From: an uncultured Verrucomicrobiae bacterium
GTDB taxonomy: Bacteria; Verrucomicrobiota; Verrucomicrobiia; Chthoniobacterales; JAFAMB01
Reading direction: 5' to 3'
DNA length: 64,000 nt
Assembly: GCA_963762565.1 (NCBI GenBank)
Contig: CAVXLD010000001.1
Span: 106,498 to 170,497, forward strand
Positions 4,247 to 61,441 of the stretch are shown here, one piece after another. The notes beneath the pieces were generated by a model. That model did not search any database, had not been told where the DNA came from, and was given only the letters and a program-made list of their open reading frames with translations. Both the position numbers and the translations under genes were made by a program. Position 1 is the stretch's first letter; every line of letters begins with the position of its first letter.

Positions 4247-4256
4247 GGCGGGGGAA

Positions 4257-4545
4257 GTGATTAGTGATTAGTGATTGGTGGTGCTGCGCTCACGCCGATC
4301 GGCCGTTTTTTGCGTTCTCACGAAAAAAGCAACCTCACAGACCGGCAGCGAATACACTGGAAAGGGCGAATCGATTAGTCCTCTGGAGTCGTGGCGTTTC
4401 CAAAAGCTCTCACGATGCGCGATTTGTTTATTGAAAATTTTCATTTTGTTAGCTCCATCACGCTCACCAATCACCAATCACCAATCACCAATCACCAATC
4501 ACCAATCACCAATCACCAATCACCAATCACCAATCACCAATCACC
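4257..4545. repeat. Inverted-word cassette, H'/H arms (GTGATTA... vs CACCAAT x about 11.5)
   Basis: Left arm 4257-4283 is gtgattagtgattagtgattggtggtg. Right arm 4465-4545 is an 81-nt CACCAAT array. Unique core is about 180 nt. The cassette fills the permease/adaptor intercistronic gap. Confidence 0.9.
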
Positions 4546-5869
4546 TCAGTTGTATGCGTTCATGACTATCAAAGGCGCTGGTATCGGACAGAATCACGTG
4601 GTCACCCGGCGTTAGGCCATTTAGGATTACAACTTTGGTGGCGGAACCACGACCCAACTGGACCTTAGTTCTGGTGGCGGTGACACCATCTGCACTCAAC
4701 CGGAACAAACCGATAGTAGAATCATCCTGGCCGAAAGCGGGTCGACCGACGTAGATGGCATCAGCTAAACGTTCGAGTTCGATGGTTCCTTCCACACTCA
4801 GGTCGGGTCTAGCTCCTTTAGGTAGTTCGATCCCGTGAAAGGTAACATCGACGAGCACGGTCCCTTCGCTCACCGCCGGATCGATTCGAGCCACCGTACC
4901 GCTGACGATACTGCCGTTGCGCATATCAACTTGCGCGGTCTGCCCGATGGCAATGTCCCGGGCTTGAGTTTCCGGGATTTTGATTTGTGCTTTCAGCTTG
5001 GTGTTGTCCGCCACTCGGGCAAGGTTGGTGCCGGCAGAAACCCGCTGCCCGACCTCGACAGCGATTTGCTGGAGGACACCGTTCATTCCGGCTCGCACCT
5101 GTAGGGCATCGACCTGTCCATGGCGTAATTCGGCTTGGGCTTCGGCCTGTTCGAGATCCGTTTGGGCAACTGCCATTCGCGGCGCCATGGATCTCTTCGC
5201 GAATTCGTAACGCTGTTTCTGTACCTCAAAATTCGCGGATAATTCCGTGGCTGCGATCTTCGCCTTCTGAAAGTCGAGAGTCGAAATCAGGCCGCCTTTC
5301 GACAACCGTTCATCTGCCTCAAACTCGGCCTGAGCGGTGTCGCGATCGGCCTGAGCTTTGGTCAAGTTGGCCTGTTGCTCCAGCATTTCTCCTTCTAGCT
5401 CCGCTTGTAGCTGGGTCAGTTTCGCTTGAGCGCTCTTGGCTGCGGCATCCGCGTCCCTCGCTTCTTGCTCTAACTCGGCGCTGCTCAACTTCAATATCAC
5501 GGAATCCGCGGTTACTTCTGTTCCCGGCCAGATCACGATTTGCTCGACTCGGGCGTCGGTTCGGGCAGGGATCCAACGGACGTCTTCGGGAACTAGCGTT
5601 CCGATTCCACGCACGTCGCGAATCAGCGGTCCGCGCGACACGGTATCAATCCAGACCGAGCTTCGGTCTACCGAGGGCAGAGCCGGTTCAAGCCGGGCAA
5701 CAAAAATACTAACTCCGGTCACCACCGCTGCCGCCAGCAAAAGCAGCAACACATTTCTGCGCCATTTCTTTTGGCGGTAACCGATTCGCGGAATGTCCAT
5801 CCGAGAACCGTCCGCCGGGACAGAGAAAACTGGTTCTACTTTCTTTTTTGGCAGCACGCTGAGCGTCAC
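4541..5869 (-). CDS. HlyD/MacA-family periplasmic adaptor (membrane fusion protein)
   Basis: 442 aa with an N-terminal TM segment, a long coiled-coil (AELEQEARDADAAAKSAQAKLTQLQAELE...) and beta-barrel C-terminal domains. The stop TGA lies inside the last CACCAAT unit. Confidence 0.85.
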   Translation of the reverse strand: MTLSVLPKKKVEPVFSVPADGSRMDIPRIGYRQKKWRRNVLLLLLAAAVVTGVSIFVARLEPALPSVDRSSVWIDTVSRGPLIRDVRGIGTLVPEDVRWIPARTDARVEQIVIWPGTEVTADSVILKLSSAELEQEARDADAAAKSAQAKLTQLQAELEGEMLEQQANLTKAQADRDTAQAEFEADERLSKGGLISTLDFQKAKIAATELSANFEVQKQRYEFAKRSMAPRMAVAQTDLEQAEAQAELRHGQVDALQVRAGMNGVLQQIAVEVGQRVSAGTNLARVADNTKLKAQIKIPETQARDIAIGQTAQVDMRNGSIVSGTVARIDPAVSEGTVLVDVTFHGIELPKGARPDLSVEGTIELERLADAIYVGRPAFGQDDSTIGLFRLSADGVTATRTKVQLGRGSATKVVILNGLTPGDHVILSDTSAFDSHERIQLR

Positions 5870-6268: not shown

Positions 6269-6439
6269 GGAAGGGTGAGGGCAAAAGGGCGAAGGGGCGA
6301 GGTTTAAGTGGACTCAGTGGACGGAGTGCACGAAGTGTGCCGCGCCAAACGCCAAACGCCAAACGCCAAACGCCAAACGCCAAACGCCAAACGCCAAACG
6401 CCAAACGCCTTTCACCTTTCACTCTTCACCTTGCCTTCC
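6269..6439. repeat. Composite cassette: purine-rich G arms enclosing an R word (AGTGGACNN) and a K array (GCCAAAC x about 9)
   Basis: ggaagggtgagggcaaaagggcgaagg (6269-) pairs with cctttcacctttcactcttcacc (6408-6439). Inside are taagtggactcagtggacggagtg and a GCCAAAC array at 6344-6409. Confidence 0.8.
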
Positions 6440-7803: not shown

Positions 7804-7844
7804 TTAGAAGAGGTAATTTCACGCCAAGACGCAAAGACGCAAAG

Positions 7845-8155
7845 GTGATTCGTGATTCGTGATTAGTGATTAGTGATTGGTGATTGGTGGAGGCACTTGG
7901 TGGGGCGAGGCTCCCGAAAGAGTAAGAAGTTCTATCAGAGCTCCCGATGTTTCGCCGCTAAAGAGTTTGTTAGGCCTATTGACGCGCCGAGCCGGGGCCC
8001 AGCGATAGACCACGGCTCGGCGCCCTTAACGGCCTAGCATCGCGGGTCGGCGGGGTTAACCGCAAGGGCTTCGCTATCGCGATGGACCTTTCGGGAGCCT
8101 CGCCCCACCAATCACTTCTCACCAATCACCGATCACGTCTCGCCCTACCAATCAC
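7845..8155. repeat. Nested cassette: H' array / F1 element / H array
   Basis: gtgattcgtgattcgtgattagtgattagtgattggtgattggtgg (7845-7890) pairs with caccaatcacttctcaccaatcaccgatcac... (8107-8155), enclosing F1 copy 1. Confidence 0.85.
7899..8109. mobile_element. F1 palindromic element, copy 1 (MITE-like or structured RNA; 211 bp)
   Basis: Terminal inverted repeats ggtggggcgaggctcccgaaag / ctttcgggagcctcgccccacc. Conserved central hairpin gcgccgagccggggcccagcgatagaccacggctcggcgc (7984-8023). Confidence 0.75.
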
Positions 8156-9933: not shown

Positions 9934-10296
9934 ATGGAAGTGATTAATCGTAACGAGGTCGCGGCATTCGTCGGACCGGATGGCGGCATTATCCGGGAGC
10001 TTGCTGCTAGCCGGAATTCATCGGCCCGAAAACAGAGTTTGGCCGAGGCTACGATTCCGGTCGGAGGAACGGTTACCGAACATTTTCACAAAACCACAGA
10101 AGAGTTTTACTACATCCTCAGCGGAACCGGCCTGATGAAGATCGAGGACGAACTGAGAGAAGTGGGTCCGGGAGACACGGTTATTATCATTCCCGGTAAA
10201 CGCCACAAGATCACAAACAACGGCCAAGTTCCGTTAGTTCTGCTGGCGTGCTGTTCACCTGAATGGACTGCAGAAGATCAGGTGCTGGTGGACTGA
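9934..10296 (+). CDS. Cupin domain protein
   Basis: 120 aa with the two cupin motifs GGTVTEHFHKTTEEFYYILSG and GDTVIIIPGKRHKITNNG. Confidence 0.75.
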   Translation: MEVINRNEVAAFVGPDGGIIRELAASRNSSARKQSLAEATIPVGGTVTEHFHKTTEEFYYILSGTGLMKIEDELREVGPGDTVIIIPGKRHKITNNGQVPLVLLACCSPEWTAEDQVLVD

Positions 10297-10304
10297 TTAA
10301 AACC

Positions 10305-10809
10305 AAATTTCACCACAGAGACACAGAGGACACGGAGAACTGATCACAGACTAATTATAACACTTTACATTTATGGTGTGTATGCGATGATCGGAATATG
10401 GAAGGGTTTAGAAATGACCTAACGCATGCCGCAATCGGCATGGCCATCGAAGTACACCGGGAGCTCGGCCCCGGGCTCCTCGAATCGGCTTACGAAGAAT
10501 GCCTCGCCTACGAGTTGCACCAATCCTCCTTGAGATTTGTTCGACAAAATCCCTTGCCTATCAAATACAAAGGCTTGGAGCTAGAATGCGGCTACCGGGT
10601 AGACCTCCTCATTGAAGATGAGCTAGTTATCGAGTTAAAGAGCGTCGAAGAGCTGCTCCCGATCTTCGATGCCCAAGTCTTAACCTACATGAAGTTGGCC
10701 GACAAGCATTTAGGGCTGTTGATCAATTTTAACGTGCCAATGCTGAAAACGGGAATCAAAAGATTTGTCCGTTGAGCTCCGTGTCCTCTGTGTCTCTGTG
10801 GTGAAATTT
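10305..10809. mobile_element. ORF-bearing cassette with perfect 33-bp terminal inverted repeats (U word CACAGAG-type)
   Basis: aaatttcaccacagagacacagaggacacggag (10305-10337) is the exact reverse complement of 10777-10809. It encloses only the GxxExxY gene. Confidence 0.85.
10398..10775 (+). CDS. GxxExxY family protein (PD-(D/E)XK-like)
   Basis: 125 aa. Motif GLLESAYEECLAYEL matches GxxExxY, followed by YRVDLLIEDELVIELKS, which is typical of the family. Confidence 0.85.
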   Translation: MEGFRNDLTHAAIGMAIEVHRELGPGLLESAYEECLAYELHQSSLRFVRQNPLPIKYKGLELECGYRVDLLIEDELVIELKSVEELLPIFDAQVLTYMKLADKHLGLLINFNVPMLKTGIKRFVR

Positions 10810-10813
10810 TGTT

Positions 10814-12175
<1,362 letters not shown>

Positions 12176-12375: not shown

Positions 12376-13070
12376 CCCGGTTTTTACCCCAAAGGGGTAA
12401 TAGGACTCAGCCTGGGGTTTTAACCCCAGGAATGCGCCAAAAAAAAGACCCCCGCCCTGAAAGGGCGGCAGATTTTTGGAATGACAAATACATCAATATA
12501 TTATGTAATAGATACAATGTCTTAATCACTGGCACGCATCTTGATTCACCTTGTCTTTTCGACCAAGAACCGGGTCGCGTTCTTGCAATCTCAACAGCTC
12601 CGATCTGAAGTTCACGCGTATCTTACTGCGACTTTACGCGCCCTGGATTGCGAACCCGTTCAGGTCGGCGGAGTCAGCGATCACGTACATCTACTCTTTG
12701 GTCTTTCCCGAACCGTCTCGCTGGTAGATGTAGTTAAACAGCTTAAAACCAGCTCCACGAAGACGATTCGAGAGAAAGGTCATCACGCTTTCAGTTGGCA
12801 AACCGGCTACGGCGCCTTCTCAGTCAGCGAATCGAATAAAAGCGCAGTCATCGACTACATCATCAATCAAGAAATCCACCATCGTAAGATGACATTCCAA
12901 GAAGAAATCAGGGTGCTTCTAACCAAGCACAGTATGCGTTTCGATGAGCGATACGTCTGGGATTGAGACACTCTCAATCTGCCGCCCTTTCAGGGCGGGG
13001 CATTTTTGGGGCGCATTCCTGGGGTTAAAACCCCAGGCTGAGTCCTATTACCCCTTCGGGGTACAACCCC
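12376..13070 (+). mobile_element. Y1 (HUH) transposase element flanked by about 95-bp inverted REP-like repeats (RAYT-like unit)
   Basis: Left 12376-12471 and right 12979-13070 are near-identical reverse complements. Each contains the hairpins ggggttttaacccc and cccgccctgaaagggcgg. Confidence 0.8.
12517..12966 (+). pseudogene. IS200-like / REP-associated tyrosine transposase homologue with an in-frame TAA at codon 3
   Basis: Reads ATG TCT TAA then SLARILIHLVFSTKNR. HUH motif at HVHLL and catalytic-Tyr region WQTGYGAFSV. The longest intact ORF restarts at TTG 12541. Confidence 0.7.
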
Positions 13071-14233: not shown

Positions 14234-14339
14234 ATGGGCTTCTTCGGTTTTGAGTGACGCGTACTCCCAGACGCATCATTGGAGGTGATATTCAGGCTAT
14301 CATTAAGTAGAGAATGAAACAACGGAAAGGACGACCTTT

Positions 14340-14361
14340 GGTGGGGCGAGCCTCCGGAAAG
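14340..14361. repeat. Solo F1-type terminal repeat (left-end half site)
   Basis: ggtggggcgagcctccggaaag directly abuts F2 copy a. No matching right end is nearby. Confidence 0.6.
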
Positions 14362-14364
14362 ACC

Positions 14365-14583
14365 GGTAGGGCGAAAATCTCGGCGCGCCCAACGGAAACC
14401 ATTTTTTTTGTGACTCAATCGCGCCGGATTTGAGCCATGCGTGGGCCCTGCATCGTCCGGGACGCAATCGTTCTGTGGCGTGTCGAACCGTCGGAAGTTG
14501 CGGCTCCACGGAGCGGCTCAAATCCGGCGCGGTTAGACGTTTTAAAAAACGCATCCTGGGCGCGCCGAGATTTTCGCCCTACC
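14365..14583. mobile_element. F2 palindromic element, copy a (219 bp)
   Basis: TIRs ggtagggcgaaaatctcggcgcg / cgcgccgagattttcgccctacc, plus an inner inverted repeat cgcgccggatttgagcc...ggctcaaatccggcgcg. A second copy is at 32815-33032. Confidence 0.8.
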
Positions 14584-15187
14584 GGTCCTGGGTCGGCAAA
14601 GCGTGGGTACCCAAGATTCCGCGATCCGGAATACCATACGCCGTGCGCGACTCTGCAATGATACCAAGAGTATCTTTCGACTCGGGGACGAGACGATAAA
14701 TACGCCCTTTGGGGATAATCACATAATCACCGGGACGATAAGGCAGGATGCCGAACTCGGTCTCGAAGACACCAACCCCACGATGGAAGAAATAGAGTTC
14801 GTCGCCATCGACCGTTCGATAGAGGAACGGCATTGCCTCACGCCTCCGAGTTAAATAGAGCGAGAACGAACGCCGGGCACATGCCGCCATGGATTGCATC
14901 AACAAGGCCGGCGTTCCTTTCGGGTCCGCTAAATCCAGCGTCTCGATCGTCCGGCAATCCATAGCGATCGGCTTTAGAGAACCTTCAATCCGCTTCCAGG
15001 CCGAGGGCATCTCTTTAGCGTAAAGATGGGTGGCTTCACCAAAAAAGCCTTCGCGGCCATACTCCATTTCATAGGTCCCTTCCGGGACACCAACGTGCGC
15101 CTGATTCGGATAAACGCCGTTTTTAAGGGGGAAGCGCTGCATGCTGGCAATGTATTCCGGGGGCCGGGGAGCACAAGAGCGTGGCAC
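14579..15187 (-). pseudogene. hmgA: Homogentisate 1,2-dioxygenase, N-terminal about half only (truncated at the F2 element)
   Basis: 202 aa. NQAHVGVPEGTYEMEYGREGFFGEATHLYAKEMPSAW and the cupin segment DGDELYFFHRGVGVFETEFGILPYRPGDYVIIPKG resemble the short bacterial HGD family. It lies upstream of hppD. The ORF ends on a TAG inside the F2 terminal repeat, and no C-terminal half follows. Confidence 0.6.
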
Positions 15188-19785: not shown

Positions 19786-20054
19786 GGTAGGGCGAGGCTC
19801 CCGAACACCAAGGGGTTTTCGCGGAGCTGGGATCGGACCAGACACCCATTATCGTTGCGACGCCTTAAATCCCGCCGAGCCGTGGTCCCAGCGCTCGCCA
19901 AACCGATGGGATCAGCTTCATTTTTCGGCCGTGCGCGGGGGGTGGCACGTTGAATATCCGCGGCTCGGCATTTCTAGCGGCCTTTGATCACGACGGGCAG
20001 CACACGTCGTGGTCCTTGGAAAAAGGTTTGGAAATGCGGGAGCCTCGCCCTACC
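19786..20054. mobile_element. F1 palindromic element, copy 2 (269 bp, enlarged centre)
   Basis: TIRs ggtagggcgaggctcccgaa / cgggagcctcgccctacc. The central ccgccgagccgtgg...ccgcggctcgg stem is retained around a roughly 58-bp larger interior. Confidence 0.7.
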
Positions 20055-32779: not shown

Positions 32780-32814
32780 GGTGAGAAGTGAGAGGTGATT
32801 AGTGGGACGTGACT

Positions 32815-33032
32815 GGTAGGGCGAAAATCTCGGCGCGGCCTACGGGAACCACCTTCCTGGCTGAACCGCGCCGGATTTGAGCCATGCGTGCGCGGTGTAT
32901 TGCCCACGACGTTATTGCTCACCGTCGGATCGAAGCCAGCGAGGTGGTCCATCCACGGCGCGGCTCAAATCCGGCGCGCACGGTCCCAGCGCAGGTGGCC
33001 CATCCTCAACGCGCCGAGATTTTCGCCCTACC
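32815..33032. mobile_element. F2 palindromic element, copy b (218 bp)
   Basis: It has the same 23-bp TIRs and inner cgcgccggatttgagcc / ggctcaaatccggcgcg repeat as copy a. Lies between ribBA and ribH. Confidence 0.8.
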
Positions 33033-33046
33033 GGAGTCTCGGCCAT

Positions 33047-33066
33047 TTCGGGAGCCTCGCCCTACC
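33047..33066. repeat. Solo F1-type terminal repeat (right-end half site)
   Basis: ttcgggagcctcgccctacc lies 14 bp after F2 copy b. This mirrors the F1 left half next to F2 copy a. Confidence 0.6.
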
Positions 33067-33114
33067 ATCCTGGCCCTTGCGGGCAATCTTGGCCGGAGTA
33101 TCGTCCCAAGCTCA

Positions 33115-43096: not shown

Positions 43097-43227
43097 AGCG
43101 CCCCGTGGAGCGTGCCTCGCTTGCGAGTCCGACGAACCACCCATTGCGTATTTCCTCTTTCCGCGGGCTGTCAGGCGAAAATATCTCAGAGTCGGCCTTG
43201 CAAGCGAGGCACGCTCCACGGGGCGCT
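43097..43227. repeat. F3 cassette with perfect 28-bp inverted repeat
   Basis: agcgccccgtggagcgtgcctcgcttgc (43097-43124) is the exact reverse complement of 43200-43227. 75-nt core. Lies between DUF2334 and PHP-GT4, and the right arm contains the DUF2334 stop codon. Confidence 0.9.
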
Positions 43228-46800: not shown

Positions 46801-47011
46801 GGTAGGGCGAGGCTCCCGAACCTACACAAAGGGTTAGCAAAGGCTAAACTCCGAGGCGAATCGCTGATACGCTGTACCGACAAACGCGCCGAGCCGTGGC
46901 CCAGCGATAGATCACGGCTCGGCGCGCTTCATGGCCTATGAACACCGTTCGCCAGGTGACGTACATGGCCCTTCGCGATAGCGATGGATTCTTCGGGAGC
47001 CTCGCCCCACC
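46801..47011. mobile_element. F1 palindromic element, copy 3 (211 bp)
   Basis: TIRs ggtagggcgaggctcccgaa / ttcgggagcctcgccccacc. The central hairpin at 46886-46925 is 37/40 identical to copy 1, and the length is the same as copy 1. Confidence 0.8.
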
Positions 47012-49180: not shown

Positions 49181-49238
49181 TGCTCTGTGTCACCAATTCA
49201 GCGGATTTCACACGCAATAGCGCCGACGGAATACGGGT

Positions 49239-50180
49239 ATGAACCGCGATTTCCCCTTGCTTACCACGGCCTCGCAAGCGAGGCACGCTCCAGTGTTGCA
49301 GGACAAAATTGAAGCAGCCATTTCACGCCGGTCCGGCCTAAGATCACCCAACACCGACGTTTGCCGTCTGGTCAATGGGACCGGAGACGGCTTGGACGGA
49401 ATCATCATCGACGACTTCGGCGGGCGCTGGCTGGTCTCAAGCAAAGAAGGAGAAAACCGGCCTAAGCTTCCACCGGCATTGGGCTATCGCGCTCTTTATG
49501 CGAAAACCCTTTCGAAAAACGAGAAGACGCGTCCCTCGTACATCGGAGGCGAAGAGTTAACCGCACGTTTCCCCATTCTTGAAGATGGGCTTTCCTACTG
49601 GATCGATTTCCAAAGTGGCTATTCGCAAGGCTTATTCATTGACCAGCGCCTCAATCGCCGCCGGTTACGCGAGCTTTGTCCCGGCAAAACCGTACTCAAT
49701 ACGTTTGCTTATACGTGTAGCTTCGGAGTAGCCGCGGTTTCCGCTGGAGCCAACGCGGTGAACCTGGATCTCTCCCGCAACTACCTCGAATGGGGTCAGC
49801 AAAACTACCAGCTGAACGGTCTGCAACCCCAGCAAAGCGACTTCGTCTATGGCGACGTGTTTGATTGGATGGCCCGTTTCGCCAAACGAGGCCGCCGGTT
49901 CGACATAGTGATACTGGACCCTCCAACGTTTTCACGTAGCCGAGCTTCAGGTGTTTTTCGCGCAGAAAAAGATTACGTAGCGTTGCTAGAACGCGCGCTT
50001 CGCGTGATCGAACCCGCAGGGACCGTTCTTTGCTGCCTGAACGCTCACCATATTTCCGCGGGCGAGTTCAGGTACCTGCTGAAAAGCAGCCTCCCACCTT
50101 CCGCGGGCTTGCTGCAAATGCCAATGCCCGAGGATTTCCCAGGAAGCGATTATCTGAAGAGTTTCTGGGTACGGGTGTGA
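49239..50180 (+). CDS. Class I SAM-dependent (RlmI/YwbD-like) RNA methyltransferase
   Basis: VLNTFAYTCSFGVAAVSAGA and ILDPPTFSRS motifs. The N-terminal about 15 residues are encoded by an F3 arm, so the true start may be the GTG near 49283. Confidence 0.75.
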   Translation: MNRDFPLLTTASQARHAPVLQDKIEAAISRRSGLRSPNTDVCRLVNGTGDGLDGIIIDDFGGRWLVSSKEGENRPKLPPALGYRALYAKTLSKNEKTRPSYIGGEELTARFPILEDGLSYWIDFQSGYSQGLFIDQRLNRRRLRELCPGKTVLNTFAYTCSFGVAAVSAGANAVNLDLSRNYLEWGQQNYQLNGLQPQQSDFVYGDVFDWMARFAKRGRRFDIVILDPPTFSRSRASGVFRAEKDYVALLERALRVIEPAGTVLCCLNAHHISAGEFRYLLKSSLPPSAGLLQMPMPEDFPGSDYLKSFWVRV

Positions 50181-50185
50181 CGGTT

Positions 50186-50457
50186 CGCGTTTGGCGTTTG
50201 GCGTTTGGCGTTTTGGCGTTTTGGCGTTTGGCGTTTGGCGTTGGGCGTTTGGCGTTGGGCGTTGGGCGTTGGGCGTTTGGCGTTGGGCGTTGGGCGTTGG
50301 GCGGTTCACCGTTCGCTGGTTGGCTTTTCGTGCTCGTCCTCGTGCTCGACGAAACCCGGGCCACCTCGAAAAGAGATCCATCATCCCTGTTCTCCTTTTG
50401 CTGGCCATCAATCGCTTTCAGGCGTCGAACGCGCTCTCGAGGACGAGGACGAGAACG
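50186..50457. repeat. K' array (GTTTGGC/GTTGGGC x about 17) followed by a Q-core-Q' cassette
   Basis: Heptamer array at 50186-50304. Q at 50329-50348 (cgtgctcgtcctcgtgctcg) and Q' at 50434-50457 (ctctcgaggacgaggacgagaacg). Confidence 0.9.
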
Positions 50458-51252: not shown

Positions 51253-52047
51253 TCATACCGCGATCGGCGCCTTGATGGTCGGATGAGGGTCGTATCCCGC
51301 GAGCTCAATGTCTTCGTACACGAACTCGTGCAAAGTCGCTGGTACTTTCCTAAACTTGATGGTTGGCAGAGCCTTAACTGGCCGGGACAACTGTTCTTTC
51401 ACCTGATCCAGATGATTCAGATAAATATGCAGGTCCCCGAAGGTGTGAATGAAGTCACCTGGCTCCAGATGACAGACCTCGGCGACCATTAAAGTCAGCA
51501 ATGCGTAAGAGGCGATATTAAACGGCACCCCCAGAAACAAATCGGCACTACGTTGGTAGAGCTGGCAGCTCAAACATCCATCCAGCACGTAGAATTGGAA
51601 GAGGGCGTGACAAGGTGGCAAAGCCATTTGCTTTAATTCTCCCGGATTCCATGCAGTCACGATCAATCGACGGCTGTCCGGGTTTTCTTTGATCATGCGA
51701 ACAACTTCACTCAGTTGGTCTACCGGTTGGCCGTCAGCGGTTTTCCAATCTCGCCATTGCGCGCCGTAAACGCGACCCAATTCCCCTTGGGGATCCGCCC
51801 ACTCATCCCAGATCGTGACGCCGTTTTCGTTAAGGAACCGGACATTCGTCTGTCCACGGATAAACCAAAGTAACTCGTGAACGACTGATTTAAAGTGGAC
51901 CCGTTTGGTGGTCACTAAAGGGAACCCCTCGGACAGGTCGAATCGGGCCTGAGCCCCAAAATAGGAGAGTGTGCCAACGCCTGTGCGGTCGTGTTTTGGC
52001 CGGCCCTTCTCCAACACCAAACGGAGCAGTTGATGATACTCTTTCAC
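51253..52047 (-). CDS. thyA: Thymidylate synthase
   Basis: [15 protein letters not shown] (GTG start at 52047), DRTGVGT, catalytic [31 protein letters not shown]. 264 aa. Confidence 0.95.
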
Positions 52048-52062
52048 CGGTACGTAATTTAT

Positions 52063-52352
52063 CCGCAGATTGCGCAGATTACGCAGATTTTTTTTCGGTG
52101 GGGCGAGGCCATAAACCGTGGAGCGTGCCTCGCTTGCGAAGCCGTGGTGAGCAACGCTGACGATGTGGCAGCGCATCCGCCGGCTGCGCTCTTGCGTGTG
52201 AAGTTGCAGGAGGCGGGAGATAGAGCGCTGACCGAAATAGGGCCTGCTTCAAAATGTTGCTTTGTTTACCACGGCCTCGCAAGCGAGGCGCGCTCCAAGG
52301 CTTCGCCTCGCCCTACCCGAAAAAAAATCTGCATAATCCCCGTAATCTGTGG
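52063..52352. repeat. Three-layer nested palindrome (T / F1-like / F3 words) filling the thyA-folE2 divergent region
   Basis: T at 52063-52095 pairs with 52320-52352. cggtggggcgaggc (52096-52109) pairs with cttcgcctcgccctacccg (52301-52319). F3 arms at 52116-52147 pair with 52269-52300. Core is about 120 nt. Confidence 0.9.
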
Positions 52353-52382
52353 ATATTTGGCCTGACAAAACGCGAGTATAGA

Positions 52383-53174
52383 ATGGAACCGAAAGCAACG
52401 ACAGCTCTGGTCGATACGCAAAGCCTTCCGGATCACCGGGAAGTTAGAATCGATCGTGTCGGTGTTACCGATGTGCGTTTCCCGATTGTCGTCCGAGACA
52501 AGGCGCACTCTTCTCAACACACCATTGCCAGGGTGGCCTTGACCGTTGACTTACCACATCACTTCAAGGGCACCCATATGAGCCGCTTCATAGAGGTGCT
52601 TAACGAGCATGGCTCGGTGGTACACGTCGATAATATCAAAGAAATTTTACACCACCTCCAACAGCGCCTTGATGCTCAACAAGCGCACGTCGAATTCGAG
52701 TTTCCGTTTTTTATGGAAAAAAGCGCTCCGGTAACGGGATCGGTCGGCCTGATGGATTATAATGTGCGCTTTACGGCGACCGCCTCCCGCAAGGAGTCCG
52801 ATTTACTCTTAACCGTAATCGTCCCAGTAACGACGCTTTGCCCCTGTTCCAAAGCCATCAGCAAATATGGAGCGCACAATCAACGCGGGCAGGTCACCTT
52901 CAGCATACGGTCTAGCCGGCTGGTTTGGATCGAGGAGCTGATTCAGTTGGTGGAAAGCTCGGCCAGCGCGGAACTATACAGCTTGTTAAAACGTCCCGAT
53001 GAAAAGGCACTGACCGAACGAGCCTACGAGCACCCCGTATTCGTCGAAGATCTGGTCCGCAATATCGCCATCAAAGCCAACGCCGATTCAAGGATCATTT
53101 GGTATCGGATCGAAGCGGAAAACTACGAATCGATCCACAATCATAACGCTTATGCGATGATCGAGAAGGGGTAG
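52383..53174 (+). CDS. folE2: GTP cyclohydrolase FolE2/MptA (GCYH-IB)
   Basis: RIDRVGVTDVRFPI, HHFKGTHMSRF, TTLCPCSKAISKYGAHNQR. ATG at 52383, because the upstream ORF extension is repeat-encoded. Confidence 0.9.
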   Translation: MEPKATTALVDTQSLPDHREVRIDRVGVTDVRFPIVVRDKAHSSQHTIARVALTVDLPHHFKGTHMSRFIEVLNEHGSVVHVDNIKEILHHLQQRLDAQQAHVEFEFPFFMEKSAPVTGSVGLMDYNVRFTATASRKESDLLLTVIVPVTTLCPCSKAISKYGAHNQRGQVTFSIRSSRLVWIEELIQLVESSASAELYSLLKRPDEKALTERAYEHPVFVEDLVRNIAIKANADSRIIWYRIEAENYESIHNHNAYAMIEKG

Positions 53175-60963: not shown

Positions 60964-61265
60964 ATGAAAATCACGATGAACAACGACGAACTTCGCGCGC
61001 TCAATCAAAACGGAAAATCTATCAGATTGCCTGGGTCACCCGGGACCTAGAAAAGAGCATGAGAGCTTGGGTGGAAAACCTGAAAATCGGGCCTTGGACG
61101 GTGCTCACATTCACTGACCAATCGCTCAAGTACCTTGAGGTCGACGACAAACCGGTTACTGCGCCTTTCAAGTTCTTGATCGGGATTTCCTGGATCGGCG
61201 GCGAGAGAACACTTAGCCGCTACAAAAAGAAACCTAACCGCAGATTAACGCAGATTTACGCTTAA
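60964..61265 (+). pseudogene. VOC (glyoxalase/dioxygenase-fold) family fragment, frameshifted and truncated by a T-word cassette
   Basis: MKITMNNDELRALNQNGK shifts frame in the run ggaaaatc into IYQIAWVTRDLEKSMRAWVENLKIGPWTVL. Homology stops at ISWIG, where the cgcagatt repeats begin. Confidence 0.45.
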
Positions 61266-61441
61266 AGACAATAAGACCACGAACGGACTCGAATGTTAAC
61301 AACCGGTTCACGGAGCGCGGAGAGGCCATTATTATCTCTCTAGCTTACCCTTTTCTCAATCGGCTTGCCGAAAACTCGTGTCAATTCGTGTGCATTCGCG
61401 GTTTATTCCAAATCTGCGTCAATCTGCGTTCATCTGCGGTT
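61236..61441. repeat. T-word cassette (CGCAGATTN units inverted around about 148-nt core)
   Basis: aaccgcagattaacgcagatttacgc (61236-61261) pairs with aaatctgcgtcaatctgcgttcatctgcggtt (61410-61441). Confidence 0.85.

Follow-up and report, generated by a model that had tools for sequence, protein, structure and literature searches.

A nested palindrome between thyA and folE2 in a Verrucomicrobiae bacterium has an old outer shell related to GxxExxY cassettes and probably co-opted for divergent promoters

Where can two divergent genes keep their promoters when nearly all of the DNA between them is a palindrome? The question is raised by thyA and folE2 in the window, by which we mean the whole 64,000-nucleotide stretch of DNA analysed here, from an uncultured Verrucomicrobiae bacterium. 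The original prediction set the start of thyA at 52047 on the minus strand and that of folE2 at 52383 on the plus strand, and described a three-layered palindrome filling almost the entire 335-bp spacer. It concluded that both promoters must lie within the repeat arms, or that the arms themselves act as outward-facing promoters. The gene starts are sound and not mis-set: they agree with gene calls made independently on two further MAGs of this species, and the N-termini (VKEYH... and M.P...LVDTQ) are common to all relatives. That the spacer is nearly filled by a nested palindrome is likewise upheld by repeat search, blastn and fold prediction.

Positions 52060-52355 form one long imperfect palindrome of 296 bp, with arms of ~98 nt that are 84-87% complementary (Table 1). 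The repeat search resolves it into three inverted-repeat pairs: 52060-52098/52317-52355 (39 nt, 87% complementary), 52088-52109/52305-52326 (22 nt, 86%), and 52113-52157/52259-52303 (45 nt, 84%), the innermost arms being 101 nt apart. By blastn, the palindrome matches itself over 90 nt at 84%. A 304-nt stretch over the palindrome folds into one long hairpin both as DNA (-103 kcal/mol, z -12.5) and as RNA (-188 kcal/mol, z -15.7), and none of 100 shuffles reaches an equal fold in either case. Three independent assemblies contain the palindrome, at ~99% identity, so it is not an assembly artefact. The boundaries first drawn were right to within a few bases and needed small corrections. The outer arms reach 52060 and 52355, the inner arms are those of the third pair above, the core is ~101 nt rather than ~120 nt, and the space left outside the structure, estimated at ~15 and 30 bp, is indeed small, at exactly 12 nt on the thyA side and 27 nt on the folE2 side.

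Table 1. Features of the thyA-folE2 region and related elements in the window.
Feature	Positions	Strand	Details
thyA (thymidylate synthase)	51253..52047	-	GTG start 52047; ORF and translation; Pfam Thymidylat_synt on identical MAG genes
thyA-side spacer, 12 nt	52048..52059	.	Without Shine-Dalgarno; ~60% identity between lineages
Outer left arm: TATC + CGCAGATTG + CGCAGATTA + CGCAGATT + T8	52060..52095	+	87-97% conserved in six lineages
Left GGTAGGG-type box CGGTGGGGCGAGGC	52096..52109	+	Identical to F1 element terminus; related box in all six lineages
F3 palindromic element, 191 bp	52113..52303	.	Arms 52113-52157 and 52259-52303, core 52158-52258; species-specific nested insertion
Right GGTAGGG-type box GCCTCGCCCTACCCG	52305..52319	-	Repeat search, self-comparison, relatives
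Outer right arm: A8 + three degenerate AATCTGCG words + GGATA	52320..52355	-	Repeat search, conservation
folE2 leader region, 27 nt	52356..52382	+	Conserved CTGACAAAAC (52362-52371), ATAGA before ATG; 77% identity between lineages
folE2 (GTP cyclohydrolase IB)	52383..53174	+	ATG start 52383
Complete GxxExxY cassette	10296..10818	+	Arms 10296-10337 and 10777-10818, 42 nt, 95% complementary
Second gene-less CGCAGATT-word palindrome	61236..61441	.	Arms 61236-61261 and 61416-61441, 10-nt period

Each of the three layers represents a different repeat family that recurs elsewhere in the window, as the layered description implied, although relatives show the outer and middle layers to be one ancestral unit. 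The CGCAGATT words of the outer arms recur in the second gene-less palindrome. The boxes CGGTGGGGCGAGGC and GCCTCGCCCTACCCG are the termini of F1 elements of ~210-260 bp (7897-8111, 19786-20054 and 46801-47011). F3 has a further full copy at 43097-43227 and a half copy, with part of the core, at 49207-49292.

The window as a whole is dense in nested inverted arrays of short tandem words (AGGAGCT, GTGATTN, TCGTCC, AGTAAGC, AGTGGAC). Some heptamer arrays are long and near-perfect, such as GCGTTTG ×16 (50187-50303), TCACCAA ×12 (4464-4545) and CGCCAAA ×10 (6343-6409). The GCGTTTG array of the window exceeds that of strain L001 by ~64 nt, and GGATTCT has three copies in strains L005 and L007 and four in L006; thus, word arrays change length between strains. 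Two GTAG-type elements with GGTAGGGCGAAAATCTCGGCGCGCC termini (14330-14610 and 32790-33080) adjoin solo F1 termini, families being nested here again. GTGATTN/AATCACN heptad arrays lie at 4254-4547 and 7844-8144 and match in sequence the WATCACW heptads to which the omega repressor of plasmids binds. The sole Rfam match in the window is an Acido-Lenti-1 RNA (RF01687) at 13018-13063 on the plus strand (38.3 bits against a gathering threshold of 37).

The divergent thyA-folE2 pair is kept in relatives. We compared six Chthoniobacterales lineages (the window with L001 and L002; L003/L004; L005-L007; L010; L011; L012), in which FolE2 is 87-92% identical. In all six the outer shell occupies the same place, separated from the thyA GTG by 11-13 nt and from the folE2 ATG by 27-29 nt. 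It consists of TATCC, three 9-nt CGCAGATT words, a T run and a GGTAGGG-like box, together with their mirror; on each side, every lineage has three words and a T/A run, with a GGTAGGG-like or CCCTACC-like box just inside. Because boxes and arms occur together in all six lineages, the outer and middle layers constitute a single ancestral unit. Shell-bearing orthologous spacers measure 155-407 bp, and shell-less ones 58-109 bp, the latter being found, with no word arrays, in relatives whose FolE2 is 75-80% identical.

The interior of the shell is wholly different in each lineage. It holds the F3 palindrome in the window, 44 nt in L003, a palindrome of AGGAGTC/AGAATCC words in L010, ~200 nt of unrelated DNA in L011 and a palindrome with AATAGCA words in L012. 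In L005, a word palindrome of the L010 type carries at its centre a GTAG-type element of the family seen at 14361-14587 of the window, and this family thus forms the innermost insert there. F3 is absent from the loci examined in all the other lineages (~3.8-6.8 kb each). Comparison of the orthologous regions, one of the checks proposed with the original prediction, therefore separates a kept shell from an exchanged interior. A part in transcription for the inner two layers could not be demonstrated, and the innermost is a species-specific insertion.

Outgroup spacers of ~107 bp (L008 2894-3000, L015, L018 1395-1500 and L030) share AATGAT, GATTACAGAT, AATCTTCTTGG and GCAACTGCTATTTTGA, and that of L018 carries CAGATTTGGC-N27-GCCAAATCTA. 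The GATTACAGAT and AATCT blocks common to outgroup spacers may be what is left of the CGCAGATT arms, a forerunner of them, or an operator; given these blocks, the shell could also have arisen in situ or be older than its present distribution. The outgroup spacers are without the element and the empty site is unalignable; the TA at both palindrome ends belongs to the palindrome itself and thus does not serve as evidence of a target-site duplication.

The arms are more strongly conserved than their surroundings. Four-fold sites of thyA and folE2 are 39-59% identical between the six lineages, except in the closest pair (L005/L010, 57-68%). The 31-nt arms have a mean identity between lineages of 93% (left) and 87% (right), compared with 77% for the folE2 flank and ~60% for the thyA flank. 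Other intergenic DNA around these genes is unalignable, and both gene alignments run on into the arms. Left and right arms are as similar within a lineage (0.892) as between lineages (0.888). Thus, each arm is held to a common sequence with no coevolution of the two, and these values lend no support to concerted evolution or compensatory pairing. Furthermore, the shell words keep their 9-nt period and TATCC end in all lineages, whereas the paralogue at 61236 has a 10-nt period and different ends; homogenisation with paralogues therefore does not explain the conservation.

Most of the sequences compared here come from MAGs. Between 52060-52355 and the matching region of L002 (1647-1942), from two strains that are 99.6% identical over 3.4 kb, the palindrome arms hold nine of 12 SNPs in 195 of 3414 nt, and the core holds none (P ~1e-9). 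The arm SNPs do not consistently improve pairing. Hairpin-associated mutation, gene conversion or noise in the MAG consensus may underlie this cluster.

What do these patterns imply for the promoters? Co-transcription of thyA from further upstream, which would have undone the promoter argument, is excluded because the upstream neighbour, folE2, is divergent in every relative. With an interior that can be swapped and no more than 12 and 27 nt of flank, the arms and flanks would have to accommodate the promoters together with the 5' ends of both mRNAs. By elimination, then, the promoter elements of both genes are likely to overlap the conserved arms and the short flanks. The prediction that the promoters lie within the arms is thus favoured by spacing and comparison in the form of a probable overlap with the outer arms. 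Against it, the one sigma-70-like site returned by a scan, TTGGCC-16-TAGAAT (52357-52384), overlaps the folE2 ATG, and a canonical -35 is absent at the locus.

Read outward, the arms present A8, 27 nt of words, and then GATA(A/T)N. TAAATT (52061-52056, minus strand), which straddles the left arm end, is a candidate -10-like hexamer for thyA, and GATATT (52352-52357), at the right arm end, is its putative counterpart for folE2. Transcription of thyA is predicted to start ~2 nt before the GTG, giving a near-leaderless mRNA, and that of folE2 near 52364, giving a leader of ~18 nt. The A8 run would then fall at about -46 to -37, which we take to be the position of the proximal UP subsite in sigma-70 promoters. 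The shell does not act as an intrinsic terminator: whichever strand is read, the T run comes before the stem and the A run after it, and a terminator scan of the locus returned one weak 5-bp site, no more than in shuffles.

The more general claim, that word arms serve as outward-facing promoters, fails. In an orientation survey across phyla, arms of the family abut gene ends 53 times and gene starts 44 times among the matches listed, and we therefore reject such a role as a general property of the arms. Promoter use would thus be a local co-option and not a family trait.

This survey was based on a scan of one genome per species with the pattern CCGCAGATTN{1,2}CGCAGATT, which returned at least 120 loci, for a pattern that we estimate to yield ~140 chance matches in 596 Gb. 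Among the matches listed, 63 of 120 have either an inverted partner array or at least three words in succession, and AT stands before CCGCAG in 19 of 30 palindromes, the AT not being part of the query. A 3+3 CGCAGATT palindrome is found in many phyla; hosts among the matches listed belong to Planctomycetota, Acidobacteriota, Verrucomicrobiota, Chloroflexota, Bacteroidota, Gemmatimonadota, Pseudomonadota, Nitrospirota, NC10 and Cyanobacteria. Word loci also occur on complete plasmids of the isolates Gemmatirosa and Persicobacter. The shared arm architecture, an end of 4-5 nt followed by about three 9-nt words of the form C[A/G]C[A/G]GA[G/T][G/T]N in inverted orientation, is present at 52060-52095/52320-52355, in the window at 10296-10818, and in loci L214, L217-L220 and L206.

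Several kinds of known element were sought at these loci. An autonomous element with a classical transposase between distant arms was not found among the 120 matches listed. Rfam 15 gave nothing relevant in 12 cross-phylum loci or in the GxxExxY cassette, and at the palindrome only a plant microRNA match far below threshold; searches for tRNA and tmRNA genes returned none. Our literature search found no match to the exact word strings and no paper describing these repeats. Neither a target-site duplication nor a recent transposition was seen; mobility is therefore inferred from distribution. The outer shell appears to be a MITE-like member, lacking the gene, of a cassette family that seems not to have been described.

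Clustering of neighbouring ORFs points to the gene that such cassettes carry. One small protein lies inside or beside CGCAGATT arms in L206, L106 and L179, where the arms flank its gene, and it belongs to the GxxExxY family (TIGR04256, E 1e-39 to 1e-43). Besides GxxExxY, the recurrent neighbour families are only common housekeeping ones, e.g., ABC ATPases and sensor kinases. The window itself contains a complete cassette (Table 1), with arms built of TTCAC + CACAGAGA + CACAGAGGA + CACGGAG around a 125-aa gene (10398-10775) that matches GxxExxY and PF13366 PDDEXK_3 (E 4.7e-44 and 9e-42). Its right arm, beginning 1 nt beyond the stop codon, extends into the 3' end of a xanthine/uracil permease gene; relative L220, whose protein is 86% identical, has a GxxExxY cassette at the same position. 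The interior of the thyA-folE2 palindrome has no GxxExxY ORF, so this copy would be a gene-less derivative.

The association between gene and arms is broad. The GxxExxY gene lies within or adjoining word arms (CRCRGAKK) in ~12 of 16 loci, including that in the window, and at two further loci, both in Gemmatirosa, an empty word palindrome follows the gene. Among GxxExxY genes sampled irrespective of repeats, those of Bacteroides, Bernardetia, Sphingomonas and Treponema and four from a protein search are flanked by inverted word arrays. The Bacteroides arms (TTCACCACAGAGGACGCAGAGGACACGGAG) are almost identical to those in the Verrucomicrobial window. The two GxxExxY genes of Gemmatirosa are not enclosed, and each is followed by an empty 3+3 palindrome (L212 881-964, CGCAGAGGA words; L222 596-668 on plasmid 1, CACGCGGAT words), so that the parts are the same but arranged differently. 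Persicobacter L221, with degenerate AATCC words that are not clearly inverted, is a weak example or a counterexample. GxxExxY cassettes sit tightly between housekeeping genes, e.g., fabD|GxxExxY|fabG, and their right arm begins at, or within ~10 nt of, the stop codon.

Across ~12 sequences, GxxExxY proteins group by word type and not by host phylum. Those with GATT-type words (Chitinophaga, Coatesbacteria, Treponema) are 44-51% identical to one another, and those with CACAGAG-type words (Verrucomicrobia, Bacteroides, Bernardetia, Melioribacteraceae) 51-86%, compared with 33-42% between the two types. A partial protein from Planctomycetaceae is 68% identical to that of Coatesbacteria (tblastn). 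The only GxxExxY gene in the 64-kb window is of the CACAGAG type, with none of the GATT type. Residues D69, E79 and K81 are invariant, consistent with a PD-(D/E)XK nuclease active site. The family is large, with 20,763 representatives of 50%-identity clusters at E ≤ 0.001. Some relatives (among P0241-P0250) are 260-295 aa long with two matched stretches, being tandem two-domain fusions. Searches of PDB by sequence, PADLOC and PHROGs gave no matches for the protein, and an AlphaFold model from a 30-sequence alignment (pLDDT 45.6) was too poor for a fold search. We found no paper giving a function for GxxExxY; PDDEXK_3 has been listed only as "unknown, multiple transfers" (Steczkiewicz 2012).

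Taken together, we consider it probable, with real room for doubt, that the palindrome, a nest of hairpin repeats, has as its outer shell an old derivative of a GxxExxY cassette, without the gene, which has since been co-opted for the thyA and folE2 promoters. This reading builds on the nesting, the age and constraint of the shell, the turnover of its interior, and the family link to GxxExxY cassettes documented above. The ancestor of the clade would have acquired this gene-less (MITE-like) derivative in its thyA-folE2 spacer. The shell would then have been co-opted, with the core promoters and the 5' ends of both mRNAs in arms and flanks. Each arm would contribute, in outward order, A8 as an UP-element-like tract, the 27 nt of words, and GATA(A/T)N as a -10-like element. 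The palindrome centre might be the only place where further insertions were tolerated or targeted, which would account for the Russian-doll form.

Some of the same observations could be explained without co-option. The shell could be a selfish or neutral repeat, kept by a family-level force such as a trans-acting nuclease or gene conversion, with the promoters in the flanks or interior inserts. Conservation of word sequence across phyla does imply some family-level constraint, the survey found no bias to the promoter side, and the concentration of strain SNPs in the arms is compatible with conversion or hairpin-driven mutation. However, we judge this account unlikely. The second copy in this genome has another period and other ends, the two arms show no sign of concerted evolution, and the distance to both start codons is fixed while the sequence of the thyA flank is not; moreover, the flanks are too short for a promoter.

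Two further accounts seem to us less probable still. Transcription of one or both genes might begin on the far side, making the palindrome a 5'-UTR hairpin in a long leader RNA that RNase III-type cleavage would then shorten. 23S rRNA intervening sequences, which are hairpin-bounded and excised by RNase III, offer a precedent, and the extreme stability of the region as an RNA hairpin fits such a leader. The conserved A/T-rich block at the folE2 ATG is -10-like on both strands, and the start of the right arm of complete cassettes at the stop codon suggests a role at the RNA level. Nevertheless, the arms show no lineage-specific compensatory change, promoters would be needed inside the neighbouring coding sequence, and the region matches no Rfam family; we regard this account as improbable. 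The reading to which we give the least credence is that of a locus-specific operator, in which the words would be sites of a thymidylate or folate regulator, e.g., DnaA-box-like or Fur/Zur-type. The arms conserve primary sequence rather than pairing, every lineage has three words per side, and the outgroups keep an inverted GATTACAGAT...AATCT pair. The arm end TGTGGATAT/TGCGGATAA agrees at eight of nine positions with TGTGGATAA, which we take to be DnaA-box-like, and folE2 is regulated by Zur in several bacteria; we did not adopt the DnaA-box and Zur-box readings of the arms. Yet these arms are also present at unrelated loci across many phyla, next to both the ends and the starts of genes and surrounding GxxExxY genes, and a 9-nt period puts the sites off one helix face.

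Beyond the co-option reading lies a wider hypothesis that we put forward tentatively, as possible rather than probable. GxxExxY proteins might be nucleases, specific for structure or sequence, that recognise their own hairpins of three 9-nt words, and together with these hairpins might form a new class of selfish cassette that crosses phyla. Hairpins without the gene would persist over very long periods and could be domesticated; the present one would serve as the symmetric scaffold of the thyA/folE2 divergent promoters, its centre a recurrent landing pad. If true, this would provide the first concrete lead to the function of GxxExxY/PDDEXK_3 proteins, namely a cognate word-array hairpin in DNA or RNA. 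It would also mean that a MITE-like hairpin can stay under constraint at an essential divergent promoter, well past the point of synonymous saturation, even as its interior is replaced. The comparison of shell with interior is a clean natural experiment for telling the functional parts of a repeat from the rest, and the explanation yields testable predictions for transcription starts and nuclease substrates. The dense word cassettes of this genome would be explained as nested members of a few hairpin families.

How does the palindrome compare with known systems? GTAG-tagged REPs have been reported in Verrucomicrobia (Di Nocera 2013, PMC3733652). The middle boxes and the F1 and F2 elements described here also carry GTAG (GGTAGGG), and the palindrome resembles REP, BIME and REPIN-RAYT systems in its mosaic of nested intergenic palindromes and its long persistence in genomes. 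The outer arms do not belong with them: they are not self-folding units of 20-40 nt and have no GTAG tag, which at this locus is confined to the middle boxes. In addition, the gene linked to word arms is GxxExxY, whereas that of REPIN systems is the RAYT Y1 transposase.

The 23S rRNA intervening sequences that contain an ORF share with complete cassettes a long inverted repeat around one small ORF, situated in transcription units without disruption of the neighbours. They differ in encoding a four-helix bundle where the cassettes encode PDDEXK_3, and their arms are not word arrays; the thyA-folE2 copy, moreover, is empty and lies between divergent genes. Eukaryotic foldback transposons have terminal inverted repeats of short tandem repeats around a variable centre. 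Their likeness to the palindrome is in form only, as foldbacks are eukaryotic, much longer and unrelated in sequence. Ribbon-helix-helix proteins bind contiguous short words, such as the 8-bp metboxes of MetJ and the 7-bp WATCACW heptads of omega. The arms resemble these sites in being contiguous words of 7-9 bp in direct and inverted arrays, but no such protein is linked to them here, and the arrays are genome-wide and nested, extending beyond a few promoters.

The closest parallel is with MITEs. The palindrome has terminal inverted repeats, is small, lacks a transposase and is one of several copies, the second being at 61236-61441. The Correia elements of Neisseria are MITEs with outward promoters. 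Like them, the shell is short, gene-less, intergenic, bounded by inverted repeats, present in many copies and placed beside start codons, and it may supply promoter parts. The differences are that its arms are three tandem 9-nt words with no target-site duplication found, and that its putative autonomous partner here is a 125-aa PD-(D/E)XK protein and not a known transposase. Also in contrast to Correia elements, the word family spans many phyla, and the thyA-folE2 copy has been kept beyond synonymous saturation.
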